A stretch of 64,000 bases of DNA from Candidatus Micrarchaeia archaeon. GTDB lineage: Archaea > Micrarchaeota > Micrarchaeia > CABMEP01. A program made the position numbers. Positions 1-6,000 of this stretch are shown in pieces. The number at the start of each line of letters is the position of its first letter. Position 1 is the stretch's first letter. The stretch lies in NCBI GenBank assembly GCA_038886535.1, contig JAVZXS010000001.1:1-64000 (forward strand), given 5' to 3'.

Positions 1-3000
1 TTATGAGGGGGGCTAAGTCGTAACAAGGTATCCGTAGGGGAACCTGCGGATAGATCACCTCCAATTTATTAATTAAATTGGTTTCAAGTGTGCACAATTC
101 CATTTCGTTATGAATTATAATTATAGCGCATCAAGCAAGGCACTGAATGTTGTAATTGAATTCTGAAGTATAGATCATGGGCTCGTAGCTCAATGGTAGA
201 GCGCCTCCTTTGCAAGAACTTTCTTAGGAAAGAAGTTTCATCAAGACTTCTTTGATGAAACTTTCTTTATAAGAAAGTTTCCAAGATAGGAGGAGGCTGC
301 GTGTTCGAAACGTGGTCTCCTACAAGGAGGCTGTGCGTAATTCACGCCGAGTCCATAACGCGTCTTCCGAATGGATGATGCGTGCATCATGCGAATATAC
401 GTTTGAGTGAAAGACACGAAGCAGTGATAATCACTGTATTTGTGAGTGCTACGCCATTCAGGGGATGGCTAGGCTTGGTTTTCAGGCAGACGTGGCAAGC
501 TGCGATAAGCGACGGGTAGCTGCAAGCAAGCGTTGATCCGTCGATCTCTGTGTGCCTGGCGACAGGTAAACACGCGGTGAATTGAAACATCTTAGTAGCC
601 GCAGGAAGAGAAACCAATCGGGATCCGGTTAGTAACGGCGAGCGAAAGCCGGAGAGAACAAACTGAATCCTGTGCAGTAATGTACAGGAGATGTGGGCGT
701 CTCAACCATCCTTTACTGGAGCTGAAGTCAGCTGGAACGCTGCGCGATACAGGGTGAGAGCCCCGTAAGCAAAAGGTAGAGGAGGGAGACGAAAAGAGTA
801 ATACTGGTTGGTAATCCAGTATGAAGATGGGTGGAGCAACATCCAATTCTAAACAGGTAACCAAGACCGATAGCGGATTAGTAGCGTGAGCGAACGCTGA
901 AAAGAACCCAGAAATGGGAGTTAAAAGTGCCTGAAACTGAATGGTCACAGGTTGATACGGTATGAAAGGGACGAAGGAGTCAAAAGGAAGCAGCAGCAAT
1001 GCTGTTGTACGATGACTCTGGACCAGTATCGTATCGTACTTCTCGAATCAAGATCCAGGGAGTAGATAGTAGTGGCGAGCCGAAAGGCGGAGCGAAAGCG
1101 AATGCACGCAGTGCTGAACGAGGTGCATCGTACGAAAGTGCGTTTAGTCACTATTATCTGACCCGAAACGGTTGCGATCTACACTGGAGCAGGCTGAAGC
1201 CGGTCTAACGACTGGTGGAGGGCCGCAACTAGTGCTAGTATATCTGCTTAGGTGACTCCTGTGTAGGGGTGAAAGTCCAATCGAGCACCGCGATAGCGGG
1301 TTCCTCCCGAAGCATCCCTCAGGATGACCCCTGTGGAGATGGATTGTGGGGTAGAGCACTGATTAGAAAGAATAGGTTCGAAAGAGCCTGCTTTCTTGTC
1401 AAACTCCGAATCTACAATCATCGTAGAAGCAGGGAGTCGGGTTTCGCTGGGTAAGCTAGCGAGCCGTGACGTGAACGAACGAGTCTTGGGTTAAAGCCCC
1501 TAAATTCCAGCTAAGTGTGAAGCCACAAGGAATGTATATTTCTAGACAGACGGGACGTAGGCTTAGAAGCAGCCATCGTCTAAGCAACGCGTAATAGCGG
1601 ACCGTTCGACACCAACGTTTGTTGGGGGAAATATACAGGCCGAAAATGTACGGGACTAAAGCTGGATGCTGAGACCCAAGGGCACACCCGAAAGGTGTGA
1701 TCCGGTAGGGAGGTGTGCGGTACGGAGAGAAGTTGGGGCGTGAGCTCCAATGGACCGTATTGCAATAAATATCCTGGAGTTAGTAGCAGCAAATACTGGT
1801 GAGAATCCAGTACGCCGAAAGCCCACGGTTTTCTTGGCAACGTTCGTCAGCCAAGAGTTAGTCGGTCCTAAGTCTCCAGCTAATTACTAGGAGACGAATG
1901 GGAAACAGGTTAATATTCCTGTACCATAGTGGTAGACGCGGCAACGCAAGGTAGGAACATGACGTCTGGGGCTAGGCAGAGCAGGGGAGACCCTGTTTAA
2001 GCGACATAGTACTGCGGAGTCTCGTTATGAGGAGAAGCAGTATAAGGCGCGAATAGCCCTCGTTTGAGGGTTCTGTTGAGGCCTTGGACCCGTGAAAAGT
2101 GGTCCTATCCGATCCACTATGACCGTACCTAGAACTAGTACAAGTGTGGCTAGCTGAAAAGGCTTAGGCGTGGTAGGGGAACTCTCGTTAGGGAATTCGG
2201 CAAATTAGACCCGTATCTTCGGTAGAAGGGTTGCCTGCGCTTGTATCTTAAGGTGCATGTGCAGGTCTCAGTAACAAGGGGAGAGCGACTGTTTATCAAA
2301 AACACAGGTAACCGCAAAATCGTAAGGTCTAGTACGGTTGCCGATGCCTGCTCACTACCAGTACCCGAAAATCTCGTTCAAGAGATCTAAGGGCTGGCGA
2401 AGAGCGGGGATAACTCTGATCCTCTTAAGGTAGCGTAATACCTCGTCGCTTAATTGGCGACTTGCATGAAGGGCATAACGACTCTCCCACTGTCCCAACG
2501 AGGGACCTAGTGAACTCACTGCTCCGTGAATATGCGGAGGAATCCTAGTGGGAAACGAAGACCCCGTAGAACTTTACTATAGCCTGTTGTTGGAACTCAG
2601 GGATTGTTGCAGAGAGTAAGTGGGAGCGTAGAAACCTCGGTTGCGGCTGAGGTGGATGCGAAAGTGTAACACCACTCTTCAATCTTTGTGTTTCTTACCT
2701 GAAAGGGGACAGCGGCAGGTGGATAGTTTGGCTGGGGCAGTACGCCCTCAATAAGGAAATAAGGGCGCCCAAAGCTCTGCTCAACCCGGTCAGAAATGAC
2801 CGCATGGTGGCGGATGATATAATGAACAACCTCTGACGCAGCATCCTACTGCGATTTAGTGATGAGGTTGAACAGCGAATGACGCATATCATCGTGCGGC
2901 CACTGAAAGTCGGGTGAAGACGGTTAAAGAGAAATGCAGGGCTGACTGTGTCCTTAAAAGCGTGGGACGCAGAGGCGAAAGCCGGGCTTAACGAACACTG

Positions 3001-6000
3001 AAATCCTTTTGTTAAGGGCTCAGTCTGTCAGACAAGTTACCTCGGGGGTAATCTTCTCAGTTGCACCACATCACCTTGGACATACACTCCTCTCCAATAT
3101 TCATTATCGTATTTTTATTGTCCTTTTCTGTAACTGTGAAGACCCAAAACAGGCTCGTCGCGGGCGAGAGTACCCTGCGACAGCTTAGTCTTCGTTAGAA
3201 CACTAGTCTGTCGCGTACATATCGACCCCGCGGCTTGGTACATCGCTGTCGACCTATCTCATCCTGGGCGTGCAGGAGCGCCCAAGGGTTGGTTTGTTCA
3301 TCCATTAAAGAGATACACGAGTTGGGTTCAGTACGTCGCGAGACAGTACGGTAGTATCTACTAGGATTGCATCTGCCTGAGGGGAACGCCCCACTAGTAC
3401 GAGAGGAACATGGGACGGGCGCCTCTAGTGTACCGGTTGTAACAAGCATTGCCGGGCAGCCACGCGCCAAATCATAAGACCTGAAAGCATCTAAGGTCGA
3501 AGGATTGCCCAAAACTAGGCAGACGTGAGAGCGGGTAGCAGACCCGTTTGATAGGTCAGTGGTGTAAGCAGCGAGCTTACGCGAGCTGCGAGCCAGCTGA
3601 TACTAAATCTCCTTACTCACAAATCTTTTCGTGTCTTTCACTCAAACTTATTTCTTATTTTTCTTTAAAATTATACTTCCCTAGCGTAAGCTCTTTTGAG
3701 TAATCTGATATATTTATATTCCTTTATTTGCATATTATATTATTCACAGATATGTTCTGTGATCTGTTTTAATTGTATCTACAATTTTATCTATTTGTAG
3801 GTGAAAAAATGGCAATTACTAACAAATATGAAGTAATTATTGTAGGCGCAGGACCTGCTGGTTCTGTATGCGCAAACTTCCTAGGAAGAGAAGGTAGAAA
3901 AGTACTTTTAGTGGATAAGGCAAAGTTTCCGAGAGACAAGACTTGTGGAGATGCTTGCAGTGGAAAGTCCATCTCGGTTCTCAGGGAATTAGGAATTCTT
4001 CCTGAAATTAAGAAAGTTGCACATGGAGTAAACAATGGAGTGATCTTCTCATCACCAAAAGGAACAATCCTTGAGATCAGAACTGAAGGCCAAGATGGAT
4101 TTGTATGCAGAAGAGAAATACTTGATAACATTCTATTCAAGGCAGCAAAGAAGTATGTTGACACTTTAGAAGAATTTACTGTTACTGATTTAATTAAGGA
4201 TGGAGAACAAGTAATAGGAATTGTAGGAAAAGATAAGAATGGAAAAGAACAAAGATACTATGCAAATGTTGTTGTTGGTGCAGATGGTGCAATGTCTGTA
4301 GTTGCACAAAAAGTAGGTGTATTTGAAGTTGATCCTGCGCACCATTGTGTTGCAGTAAGAGGATATTATGATGGAGTAACTGGAATGAAGGATGTTATAG
4401 AGCTTCACTTCACAAAGACAGCAATACCTGGTTATTTCTGGATATTTCCGTATGAAGACGGAACCGCAAATGTCGGATTAGGAATGCTTACAAAAGATGT
4501 TAAGGCTAAGAACATCAATCTCAAAGAACTAATGGAAAAGGAGATTAAAGAAAATCCAATGTTTAAAGAAAGATTCAAGAACGCCAGGTTAATAAGTGAG
4601 ATTAAGGGATGGAGCCTTCCATTAGGTTCAAAGATAAGAAAACATATAGCTGGAGATGGATGGGTTTTAATTGGAGATGCAGCCTCTTTAATAGATCCTT
4701 TCTCTGGAGAAGGAATGGGTAATGCGATGCTTAGTGGAAAGCTAGCTTTTAGAACTATAAGCAAAGCACTCAGAATGGGTGTTTACAGTAAGAAAATATT
4801 GAGCGAATATGAAGAAGAAATAAAAAGAGAACTAAAGAGTGAGCTTGAGATGAGTTACTTATTACAGAGATTAGGAAAGATTGAATTCCTTCTTAACTTA
4901 GTTATAGATAAAGCAGCAAAGAACCCAGAAATAAGAAAAGAAATTACATCTATGATAGTGAATGAAGAAGCAAAGAAGAACTTCTCTTCTCCTCTATTCT
5001 ATCTTAAGCTTCTATTTAGCTAATTTTAAAATTTTTTCTTTTCCTATTTTGTGTTTTTATTGAATCGTGTTTTTCATTCCTTTTCTCATTTTATTTTTTC
5101 TCAATAGTATAAATAGTTGAAAGTATCTTTTTAATGATTATTAATAACCAATCTTCTTATAATTAGTGCTCCGATCGGGATTTGAACCCGAGTTTCAGCC
5201 TTGAAAGGGCTGCGTCCTTGACCGGGCTAGACGATCGGAGCTTAAAGAAAAAACTAGTAGAATATAATATGTACAAAAAGAAATAAATACCTTCCTTTTA
5301 ATCTCTCTGATGGAATATCTTTTCTATCAACTCCTGTCTTACTTCTTCAAAAGGTTTTACTGTTTCTAGAGTTATCCATTTAGAAAGATAGCCCTCACTA
5401 GCAAGTTGTTTATATCTTAAATTTGCTTTTAATAAGAATTCTTCATCTCTTTCAAATCTCGTATATCTTTTCTTTCCTTTCATTCTTTCTATTGCGATAT
5501 CTGGGGATATTGAAAGGTAAACAATATAGTCTGGTTTGATTACTCCTATTGTATTTATTAATTCCTTTGCTTTTGTATAATTTATTCTTTGAAATGCGAT
5601 CGTTGTAAGTACATATCTATCTGCAATAACCCAATATCCTTTCTCTAAATCTTTTTTTATATATTCTTGATCTTTCATTATATCTGCAAGAAATAATAGA
5701 AATTGGGATTCTGAAGATAGTTCTATATCTTTATTTAAGAAGTTTTTAATCGGTCTTCCAAATATCCCTGCTTTATCAGGATATTCATAAAGTTTAACTT
5801 TTTTCCCTAATTTCTTTAAATGTGAAATGAACGCATGAACGTGTTTTGTTTTACCAGAACCGTTTATTCCTTCAAATACTATGAACATAAAATTATTTTG
5901 TCAGATTAATTTAAAAGGTTATGTATATCTAAGTTCGAATACTAATATAAATAGATAAATAAAAATAAAATAAAAGGAGATTTTATCTAAGGAAAGAAAA

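Follow-up and report, generated by a model that had tools for sequence, protein, structure and literature searches.

The window, the whole 64,000-nt stretch of DNA that was analysed, comes from a tiny hot-spring archaeon of the Micrarchaeia. It contains a 23S rRNA gene that is host to three insertions and, on the other strand, a gene for the splicing endonuclease EndA (Table 1). All E. coli site numbers given here derive from alignment to K-12 rrlH (2904 nt).

Table 1. Features of the window, with positions counted from its first nucleotide
Feature	Position	Strand	Remarks
23S rRNA gene, host to all three introns	437..3625	+	RF02540 LSU_rRNA_archaea, 2399.8 bits, model positions 1-2987
Intron 1, 113 nt	2796..2908	+	E. 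coli 2310/2311; strict BHB
C box	2814..2820	+	AUGAUAU, variant of RUGAUGA
D' guide, 12 nt	2821..2832	+	pairs with A loop 3291-3302
D' box	2833..2836	+	CUGA; spacer hairpin 2837-2853 next
C' box	2859..2865	+	GUGAUGA
D guide, 13 nt	2866..2878	+	D-proximal 7 nt pair with 3243-3249
D box	2879..2882	+	AUGA, variant of CUGA
Intron 2, 98 nt	3051..3148	+	E. coli A2450/A2451; relaxed BHB
Intron 3, 45 nt	3176..3220	+	E. coli U2477/A2478; strict BHB
D guide target, probable	3243..3254	+	U3247 = E. coli U2504
D' guide target, A loop	3291..3302	+	U3295 = E. coli U2552
Splicing endonuclease EndA, 381 aa, three-unit epsilon2 type	41086..42231	-	tRNA_int_endo 94.8 bits, tRNA_int_endo_N 31.9 bits (Pfam)

Insertions in the 23S rRNA gene and their removal

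In an Infernal alignment of the 23S rRNA, the 114 nt after position 2795 stand opposite a single model position and the 165 nt of 3065-3229 stand opposite 23. Three relatives (G036, G034 and G011) lack every one of the insertions, and their exon segments run on without a break. The alignment and the intron-less relatives confirm the survey's finding of insertions of 113, 98 and 45 nt, and the alignment-derived numbering upholds its placement of intron 2 within the peptidyl-transferase strand. The ends of intron 3 are unambiguous; by contrast, removal of either 2794-2906 or 2796-2908 (intron 1), or of either 3050-3147 or 3051-3148 (intron 2), yields an identical product. All three introns are present in 7/7 genomes of the family, and the sRNA-bearing form of intron 1 described below recurs in all eight genomes of the order for which the 23S region has been assembled. 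Homologues of intron 2 were found in the genus alone, apart from a 347-nt form in G007, whose homologous introns measure 145, 347 and 48 nt. The survey had held the insertions to be missing outside the family, a claim that fails for intron 1: an 80-nt homologue occupies the identical site in G009, which belongs to a second family of the same order. Site 1 also holds insertions unrelated to intron 1 in G018 and G014, and unrelated insertions lie a few nucleotides from site 3 in G016, G039, G029 and G024, all from other families.

The intron ends, fixed independently, coincide with bulge-helix-bulge (BHB) motifs. At intron 1, an exon helix (2785-2789/2910-2914) and a central helix (2790-2793/2903-2906) are followed by bulges at 2794-2796 and 2907-2909 and an intron helix (2797-2804/2895-2902); the BHB-constrained fold has an energy of -49.3 kcal/mol, compared with -50.4 kcal/mol for the minimum free energy (MFE) fold. 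Its helices are paired in 96.2% of cells and contain eight pairs with changes on both sides, a value reached by 0/500 shuffles, whereas slid controls were paired in 29-48%. Intron 3 likewise has a central helix (3170-3173/3215-3218), bulges (3174-3176 and 3219-3221) and an intron helix (3177-3183/3208-3214), and here the MFE fold is the BHB itself. The motif thus takes its strict form at introns 1 and 3 but not, as the survey had it, at every intron: intron 2 shows a relaxed version in which the central helix (3045-3048/3143-3146) consists of three G:C pairs and one G.A, the intron helix spans 3052-3064/3130-3142 and the exon-side helix is just 1 bp. Among 3,034,785 end pairs in the 23S gene, equally good motifs arise by chance at 24 for intron 1, 7 for intron 3 and 1,219 for the relaxed motif of intron 2.

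Joined exons were re-found, with the joints previously reported, in contigs of one metatranscriptome library (X16), whose source is a different strain, a member of the genus 98-99% identical to this one. A 1730-nt contig (depth 417.6; 7 differing letters in 357) contains the joints 2793>2907 and 3049>3148, and a 164-nt contig (1 differing letter in 160) contains 3175>3221; no RNA contig covers intron 1 (depth 0 in X16). A search for the joined form in DNA runs, a gap that the survey itself had named, found none of the three joints in the DNA contigs of X1 or X6; these span the introns and contain the insertions, with 0 differences over 2600-3244 in X1. Raw reads had also been cited in support of the 3175>3221 joint, and this support falls away: upstream of 3148 the 34 such reads in X22 run into foreign sequence, with no exon of the source organism, so that they belong to other organisms, and the 'joined' sequence at site 3 is natural in G019 DNA. 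Because intron-less relatives, BHB folds, RNA-contig joints and genes for an epsilon2-type endonuclease and RtcB support splicing, the best interpretation of these stretches is the one that the survey proposed: all three are introns excised at BHB motifs by the archaeal splicing endonuclease.

A probable box C/D sRNA in intron 1

Intron 1 appears to be a box C/D methylation-guide sRNA whose D' guide directs a near-universal methylation, that of U2552, in its own host 23S rRNA. The earlier description of the introns as ORF-less is therefore incomplete rather than wrong, as intron 1 would be a guide RNA gene and not empty spacer. Stem I (2810-2812/2883-2885) closes the kink-turn, and in all 8 intronic copies, which are 73-99% identical overall, stem I, the GA dinucleotide in each of the two boxes and the 12-nt spacing are preserved. 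The D guide is 12 nt long in G004, G009 and every free-standing gene. When folding is left unconstrained, the MFE structure has the C box paired to 2886-2893. An Rfam search of intron 1 recognised no family; the best match was snR52, sub-threshold at 17.2 bits (E 3.1) and covering the guide and the D' box. In yeast, snR52 guides the equivalent of Um2552.

Sister families have this sRNA as a free-standing gene, which assigns its transfer into the intron to a single order. A word comprising guide 1 and D' is present in 208 of 401 genomes of the class, and the loci fetched (30/30) prove to be C/D sRNA genes whose two guides are those of intron 1; 13 nt of this similarity are there by construction, since the genes were fetched by a word from intron 1. 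We parsed 42 free-standing genes from Micrarchaeia of other families, which follow the order C, 12 nt, D', spacer, C', 12 nt, D. A TATA-like word stands upstream in 37/42, compared with 10/42 downstream, 34/42 have a terminal stem, and one of four tested passed Rfam sR9 (37.6 bits; cut-off 36). An HMM of the 42 genes has one match in the source genome, at C1:2809-2888 (E 3.4e-8; next E 2). Other copies were found neither there by HMM nor in G003, G004 or G007, where further word matches were rejected because no sRNAs lie there. Judged by these searches, the putative sRNA of intron 1 is the organism's sole detectable copy.

The fifth nucleotide upstream of D' lies opposite U3295 (U2552), and the fifth upstream of D opposite U3247 (U2504). 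The complementarity is not significant on this sequence alone, because 437/2000 shuffled D' guides and 1472/2000 shuffled D guides reach a top score in the spliced 23S as high as that of the real guide. The D' duplex of this genus comprises eight contiguous pairs plus two, with a C.U mismatch at 2550. Across genomes, position 2555 of the A loop is matched by the guide in 26/26 of those having both sequences: the loop reads UUGUACA in all ten genomes with the guide AUGUACAACC and UUGUUCA in all eight with AUGAACAACC. The 8 intronic copies all agree with the A loop, including G007, in which guide and loop have both changed at 2555; in G009, position 2558 shows a further compensated pair. U2552 is also a predicted C/D sRNA target in five archaeal species, according to the available portion of PMC4644070. 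U2504 is probably the D guide target, as a poorer predicted fit than U2552 is for the D' guide; in no lineage can the duplex form without bulging out a nucleotide or accepting an A.C mismatch at 2507, and an alternative site at 2774-2786 scores equally.

Proposed processing and competing explanations

The 381-aa EndA matches the ARMAN-2 enzyme (PDB 4FZ2) over its full length (E 7.3e-123), and the genome also encodes a second EndA paralogue of 173 aa, RtcB (479.9 bits), fibrillarin (294.8 bits), Nop5 (216.5 bits) and L7Ae (98.8 bits). A clear RrmJ was not found in this genome: the best FtsJ/RrmJ score, 21.6 bits for a 263-aa ORF, lies below the cut-off of 24.1, which 14/14 control genomes pass. 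Since G009 combines the intronic sRNA with a clear FtsJ homologue (82.3 bits), the lack of RrmJ is no general correlate.

The insertions, RNA-contig joints, fold and covariation, homology to free-standing sRNAs, co-variation of guide and A loop, and enzyme genes are observed; we consider it likely that the three introns are excised by EndA and that intron 1 doubles as an sRNA guiding Um2552 and, probably, Um2504. EndA would cut the pre-rRNA in the two 3-nt bulges of each BHB, and RtcB would then ligate the 23S exons. The extended terminal stem of intron 1 is predicted to run straight into the BHB, so that excision would release the sRNA complete and probably circular. L7Ae, Nop5 and fibrillarin would assemble on its variant C/D boxes, and the D' guide, by pairing with the A loop of its own host rRNA, would direct 2'-O-methylation of U2552; the D guide would probably do so for U2504. 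The guide may act before or after excision.

Alternatively, intron 1 might derive from an sRNA gene that became inserted in the 23S and is now a relic in decay, still spliced but no longer guiding, with U2552 methylated by a protein enzyme or left unmethylated. Its non-consensus C and D boxes, the burial of the C box in the MFE fold, the mismatched D' duplex of the genus, not significant alone, and the lack of a covering RNA contig all fit this reading, as do the FtsJ homologue of G009 and the weak FtsJ match of the source organism (263-aa ORF, 21.6 bits). A relic would, however, hardly have kept step with the A loop after moving into the intron, as the guides of G007 (2555) and G009 (2558) have done, nor retained the GA dinucleotides, 12-nt spacing and stem I in 8/8 copies; moreover, no second copy was found in the source genome, G003, G004 or G007, and fibrillarin, Nop5 and L7Ae are intact. 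We regard a relic as unlikely.

Two further accounts concern splicing itself. The insertions could be retained in mature rRNA as expansion segments, the 'spliced' contigs coming from intron-less close relatives: those contigs differ from the window (7/357 and 1/160 letters) as another strain would, the RNA library could contain DNA, the raw reads for joint 3 belong to other organisms, and G019 DNA is naturally joined at site 3. Yet the differing letters equal variants known from members of the genus, in whose family all three introns occur in 7/7 genomes (intron 1 in 8/8 order genomes with the region assembled); the three joints are absent from the DNA runs X1 and X6; each set of ends matches a BHB motif, with a chance of roughly 1e-5 to 1e-3; and it would be hard to credit a working peptidyl-transferase centre with 98 extra nt between A2450 and A2451. 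Retention is thus very improbable. That the stretches are excised and the exons left unjoined, giving a fragmented 23S rRNA like that produced by bacterial intervening sequences, we find scarcely credible: across joints 1 and 2 assembled contigs were found but no raw reads of the source organism, yet one contig runs through both joints, 143 nt apart, and another through the third, an assembler using 31-letter words requires reads spanning each joint, and RtcB is encoded.

Comparison with known systems

BHB introns of rRNA genes are already known. Those of Thermoproteota (16S/23S) and of Micrarchaeota and other DPANN (LSU/SSU) share with ours the succession of helix, 3-nt bulge, 4-bp helix and 3-nt bulge and removal by the tRNA splicing endonuclease; in the available text of the sources, Micrarchaeota rRNA genes contain BHB introns alongside group I introns (PMC6125680), and Mia14 and ARMAN-2 have 16S introns (PMC5498576). 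The three described here differ in being very short (45-113 nt) and without a homing-endonuclease ORF, and intron 1 in carrying a functional-looking RNA gene. None of the sites 2310, 2450 and 2477 is among those given in the portions available, which name the group I sites 1923, 1931, 2500 and 2593. ARMAN-2 EndA (4FZ2) cleaves BHB motifs of both the strict and the relaxed kind in vitro (PMC3488258, PMC3239211, as excerpted), which fits introns 1 and 3 (strict) and intron 2 (relaxed); these excerpts, however, describe assays on pre-tRNAs alone, with rRNA substrates unmentioned, and the source genome here has the additional 173-aa paralogue.

A C/D guide borne on an rRNA intron was not found in the literature searched, and the contexts of archaeal C/D sRNAs listed in the accessible part of one review (intergenic, gene-flanking, tRNA-fused and tRNA-intron; PMC7994747) do not include it. 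Like known U2552 guides (archaeal C/D sRNAs and yeast snR52), the D' guide is complementary to the A loop in a register that would put the methyl group on the loop's first nucleotide; unlike it, those guides are free-standing or in protein-gene contexts, and the homology to snR52 is not significant (E 3.1). A parallel in arrangement is the pre-tRNA-Trp intron guide of Haloferax volcanii and of Pyrococcus (sR50), described in the same part of that review as a C/D sRNA within a BHB intron of the RNA modified, released by EndA excision and carrying two guides for two sites in its host RNA (PMC7994747). In the present case the host is not a tRNA but 23S rRNA, the targets are not adjacent to intron 1 but about 340 and 390 nt downstream, and the same sRNA is also a free-standing gene in sister families. 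Eukaryotic intron-encoded snoRNAs are likewise processed from introns of host transcripts (PMC7994747, same part), and a guide made in this way has its output tied to host transcription. Their hosts, however, are mRNAs or non-coding host genes, and their release involves the spliceosome and exonucleolytic trimming, whereas the present host is itself the target rRNA and EndA would carry out the release.

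Three introns in domain V of the 23S rRNA gene

Infernal alignment of 2650-3350 to the archaeal 23S rRNA model leaves 114 nt opposite one model position after 2795 and sets the 165 nt of 3065-3229 opposite 23 model positions. When 41 relatives were searched with the same stretch, their loci re-blasted and 11 of them aligned, three genomes of other families (G036, G034 and G011) proved to have contiguous flanking exon pieces and none of the three insertions. The insertions are confirmed as real. All three introns occur in seven genomes of the family to which the present genome belongs, in which intron 1 measures 113-159 nt and intron 3 44-48 nt; intron 2 measures 97-114 nt within the genus and 347 nt in G007, of the same family. 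The survey's finding that the introns are restricted to the family does not hold in the case of intron 1, because G009, from another family of the same order, carries an 80-nt homologue at the same site; introns 2 and 3 are indeed absent there. A search of 401 genomes of the class for intron 2 gave no convincing homologue outside the genus, the 14 remaining matches spanning only 18-37 nt (E 3.8e-4 to 0.009).

Alignment of the exon stretches with E. coli K-12 rrlH (2904 nt) places introns 1, 2 and 3 at 2310|2311, A2450|A2451 and U2477|A2478, respectively; sites 1 and 3 are presumably the loops of H84 and H89. The interruption of the peptidyl-transferase strand by the second intron, as previously proposed, is thus borne out by alignment, and with an intron between A2450 and A2451, splicing is obligatory for any ribosome activity in these cells. 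Introns 1 and 2 can slide by up to 2 nt with the same product owing to A runs at their ends, as had been noted. At 45-113 nt, the introns are too short to be read as group I introns, which have a catalytic core of about 200 nt or more; no intron family scored over the Rfam gathering score in 1-8000, and none matched intron 1 at E up to 10. The three introns are real, ordinary in kind and unusual in place.

Evidence for removal of the introns comes from X16, a metatranscriptome run. One of its contigs, of 1730 nt (depth 417.6), matches 2603-2793, 2907-3049 and 3148-3170 with 7 differences, and a 164-nt contig of the same library matches 3148-3175 and 3221-3352 with a single difference. Jointly, they give the reported joints 2793>2907, 3049>3148 and 3175>3221, with depth 0 over introns 1 and 2. 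Their differences match variants of genus members, indicating that the RNA came from a close relative and not from the strain sequenced here. By contrast, the DNA run X1 yields a contig over 2600-3244 with zero differences, a relative's contigs in the DNA run X6 run through all three introns, and none of the three spliced joints was found in either DNA run. Another joint, 3169>3215, appears in short unitigs of both X1 DNA and X16 RNA, but was rejected as a splice product: it reads GUAC-AU-AUCGAC, two letters off the spliced form, which is the sequence of intron-less relatives such as G034. The raw-read support claimed for 3175>3221 falls away. From the ~12% of run X22 that was sampled, 96 reads were aligned, 94 of them only in part; 34 show this joint, but their 98 nt upstream of 3148 are foreign to the exon of this organism, and the DNA of another relative, G019, holds the same "joined" sequence uninterrupted. 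Running into foreign sequence, these reads are uninformative on the present organism.

In the bulge-helix-bulge (BHB) motif of tRNA, each strand contributes a central helix of 4 nt and then a bulge of 3 nt, with the cut falling between the second and third bulge nucleotides. The strict form (central helix 4/4) fits intron 1 as 2796-2908 and intron 3 as 3176-3220. The unconstrained minimum free energy (MFE) fold of 3155-3240 is the BHB of intron 3, and for intron 1 the BHB-constrained fold lies only 1.1 kcal/mol from the MFE. As BHB-like patterns are common (1,232 strict ones in the 23S gene with free ends), the proper test is the motif on independently fixed ends; here, the chance per end pair of a motif as good is 24 (intron 1), 1,219 (intron 2) and 7 (intron 3) in 3,034,785. 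Relatives carry any of A, C, G and T at 2908, which is the second nucleotide of the 3' bulge, whereas the loop of the mature rRNA is invariant; this favours the BHB register 2796-2908 over 2794-2906. The earlier statement that each intron is bounded by the full motif holds for introns 1 and 3 only. In the register 3051-3148, the central helix of intron 2 consists of three G:C pairs and one G.A, its intron helix of 13 positions and its exon helix of 1 bp; with 3/4 central pairs and so short an exon helix, its motif is a relaxed BHB. A register with a perfect 4-bp helix (3046-3049/3142-3145) was discarded, as it would excise 96 nt compared with the 98 nt removed in RNA. Across an alignment of eight copies, the helices of intron 1 are paired in 96.2% of cells, with 8 pairs changed on both sides. 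None of 500 shuffles paired as highly, and slid versions paired at 29-48%, a contrast inflated by drawing the structure from one of the eight aligned copies.

Throughout the class, domain V of the 23S gene is a hotspot for insertions. Among other families, G036 (L012) has 44 nt inserted at the position equivalent to 2756/2757; at site 1, G014 (L023) has ~30 nt and G018 (L022) ~86 nt, both unrelated to intron 1, and G014 has a separate ~960 nt further upstream. Unrelated insertions of 43 to ~260 nt, again in other families, lie a few nucleotides upstream of site 3 in G016 (L016), G039 (L024), G029 (L013) and G024 (L015), and G025 (L027) and G030 (L029) hold domain V insertions of ~200 to 670 nt. 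The peptidyl-transferase centre has G at A2448 (window 3048), common to all 10 relatives aligned. It further differs from E. coli in A at C2499 (window 3242) and C at A2503 (window 3246), both shared by the 10 aligned relatives and 25 further class genomes read at the 2500 region. Window positions 1-65 are the final 65 nt of a 16S gene, and a complete 16S gene lies on contig C23 (1127-2654, minus strand), where 1528 nt stand for 1478 model positions and may include a small insertion. The rRNA operon seems to have been broken by the assembly.

Intron 1 as a probable box C/D sRNA

By its sequence, intron 1 is probably a box C/D sRNA. The box and guide blocks (see table) were spotted as conserved in the alignment between its own family and G009. 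The C and D boxes deviate from consensus, yet keep the GA of each, and a predicted kink-turn stem I (2810-2812/2883-2885) is paired in 7/7, 7/7 and 7/8 of the sequences with letters at its successive positions. Rfam passed no family on intron 1, returning sub-threshold snoRNA matches only, and a strict C/D regular expression gave no match in 58 other 23S loci and one other sRNA in the genome. Eight nucleotides 3' of the D box (2886-2893) are perfectly complementary to the C box region (2813-2820) and pair with it in the MFE fold. This complement, absent in G009, may be a remnant, or may hide the C box before the precursor is processed.

Coordinates of the 23S rRNA gene, its introns, the sRNA elements of intron 1 and the splicing endonucleases
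Feature	Position	Strand	Remark
23S rRNA gene, archaeal	437-3625	+	Rfam, 2399.8 bits
Intron 1	2796-2908	+	113 nt
C box AUGAUAU	2814-2820	+	5/7 positions of RUGAUGA
D' guide, 12 nt	2821-2832	+	conserved block
D' box CUGA	2833-2836	+	consensus
Spacer hairpin	2837-2853	+	between D' and C'
C' box GUGAUGA	2859-2865	+	consensus RUGAUGA
D guide, 13 nt	2866-2878	+	12 nt in G004, G009 and free-standing genes
D box AUGA	2879-2882	+	3/4 positions of CUGA
Intron 2	3051-3148	+	98 nt
Intron 3	3176-3220	+	45 nt
EndA, 381 aa	41086-42231	-	full-length match to PDB 4FZ2, E 7.3e-123
EndA paralogue, 173 aa, alpha-type	C16:6335-6592 (= L034:1474-1995)	-	best solved match 5X89, E 6.1e-33

The sRNA has free-standing homologues elsewhere in the class. 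A search word made of the D' guide core and D' box of intron 1 is present in 208 of 401 class genomes, and all 30 loci fetched by it are compact genes outside 23S with canonical C/D'/C'/D boxes, guides of 12 nt and both guide cores of the intron. With 15 more loci taken by coordinates, parsing gave 42 genes; 4 other places were discarded as chance matches. A TATA-like word stands 12-50 nt upstream in 37 of these (10/42 in the downstream control), and 34 have a terminal stem. One of four free-standing genes tested passes Rfam sR9 (37.6 vs cut-off 36 bits), the others scoring 27-28.5 bits. An HMM trained on these 42 free-standing genes alone has a single match in the present genome, C1:2809-2888 (E 3.4e-8; next E 2). 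The search word builds in 13 nt of the similarity between intron and free-standing genes, but not the boxes, the second guide or the spacing. Additional word matches in three relatives (G003, G004 and G007) are not sRNAs.

In C/D sRNAs, the fifth nucleotide upstream of D or D' faces the ribose-methylated site (N+5 rule). For the D' guide, this nucleotide lies opposite U3295, equivalent to U2552, the A loop's initial nucleotide, which is therefore its predicted target. The duplex in the present genome (8 contiguous pairs plus 2) is not significant alone, with 437 of 2000 shuffles as good; the evidence for this target comes from the sRNA family. Guide and A loop agree at 2555 in 26 of 26 genomes. 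The guide AUGUACAACC accompanies the A loop UUGUACA in 10/10 genomes, and AUGAACAACC accompanies UUGUUCA in 8/8. In the intronic copy of G007, both guide and A loop are changed at 2555; as the change is found both there, within the family under study, and in family f16, it arose at least twice. A second compensated pair, at 2558, occurs in G009, and the guide forms ten contiguous pairs in G009, G007 and the free-standing genes. For five archaeal species, sRNAs are predicted to target U2552 (PMC4644070), and every organism examined carries A-loop methylation at 2552, 2553 or both (PMC7994747). The conserved D-proximal core of the D guide pairs with 2500/2501-2506 and points to U2504 (window U3247); pairing of its variable distal part to 2508-2511 is kept. 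We found no better target in 16S, 23S or 42 tRNAs. U2504 is the probable target of the D guide, an assignment weaker than that of the D' guide owing to an A.C mismatch or bulge at 2507 in every lineage.

Splicing and modification machinery

The EndA encoded in the window aligns over residues 11-381 with 13-387 of 4FZ2, the epsilon2 EndA of ARMAN-2. As a single chain of three units and close to the ~390 aa typical of the type, with full-length homology to ARMAN-2 EndA, it is predicted to be of epsilon2 type. The ARMAN-2 enzyme cuts strict and relaxed BHB motifs in vitro (PMC3488258, PMC3239211). The genome also encodes an alpha-type EndA paralogue and an RtcB ligase. The RtcB match (C2:11179-13989, minus strand) falls into two pieces, model 1-52 and 46-426, ~1470 nt apart in one 1008-aa frame, which suggests an intein of ~490 aa. 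Several tRNA genes are very long and so probably bear introns: Trp (208 nt, C1:129442-129649), Arg(tct) (151 nt), Ser(gct) (126 nt), Leu(caa) (119 nt), Tyr (112 nt) and Asn (100 nt). UGAUGA and CUGA words occur in the tRNA-Trp insert, which, by analogy with Euryarchaeota, could be a C/D guide in its own right.

The genome encodes fibrillarin, Nop5 and L7Ae. A free-standing canonical box C/D sRNA lies at C1:230724-230787 (plus strand) with an AT-rich box upstream; its two guides, each of 12 nt, are near-perfect for 23S, with scores of 10.5 of 12 at window 2436-2447 and 11 of 12 at 2416-2427. This second sRNA of the genome shows the C/D system to be in use. No FtsJ/RrmJ scored over the cut-off in this 88%-complete genome, compared with 15 of 41 relatives. 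Because the clearly positive relatives include G009, which also has the intronic sRNA, the lack of RrmJ here supports the guide reading weakly. The sRNA word is sparse in families f5 (6/78) and f10 (10/64), and FtsJ is over the cut-off in 4 of the 5 f5 relatives searched. There are hints that protein-only and RNA-guided methylation of U2552 are complementary in distribution, although G009 has both.

The order comprises 10 genomes in the collection, two of which (G001 and G008) were left out because a contig end cuts the gene. All eight with the region assembled hold the intronic form of the sRNA with the same variant C box. In the simplest history, the sRNA gene would have moved into 23S once, at the root of the order, after which the free-standing copy was lost.

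A proposed guide RNA within its own target

A tentative reading, which we consider possible but doubtful as a whole, is that in this order the guide for Um2552, a near-universal methylation of the A loop, has moved from a promoter-driven gene into an intron of its target. Each pre-23S transcript would then deliver one guide copy, which would act on the very transcript that holds it while that folds, and which the tRNA splicing machinery would set free as an sRNA circle. The intron itself may stem from a circularised sRNA inserted into rRNA. Archaeal rRNA introns are usually viewed as selfish or neutral. Here, one such intron holds a working-looking gene, whose product would modify its own host RNA at the active site of the ribosome. 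This raises testable questions: whether BHB introns are retained for a function, by which route guide RNA genes enter introns (both states coexist in sister families), and whether a guide is able to work in cis within a pre-rRNA of 3 kb. When rRNA and sRNA genes of DPANN genomes are annotated automatically, the introns will be overlooked, and so will the guide.

Archaeal rRNA genes have long been known to hold BHB introns. In Micrarchaeota, they occur beside group I introns in rRNA genes (PMC6125680, PMC5498576), and pre-tRNA-Trp offers a known case of a BHB intron that contains a C/D guide (PMC7994747). Where a 2021 review treats the contexts of archaeal C/D sRNAs, its account does not name an rRNA intron (PMC7994747), and in the open full-text literature, where the slash of "C/D" is unsearchable and which excludes subscription journals, we found no report of a C/D sRNA in an rRNA intron. 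What is apparently new here is intron 1 as a guide RNA aimed at its own host. If the proposed reading is true, intron-encoded snoRNAs would have a counterpart among prokaryotes, one that might also serve as a model of their evolution.
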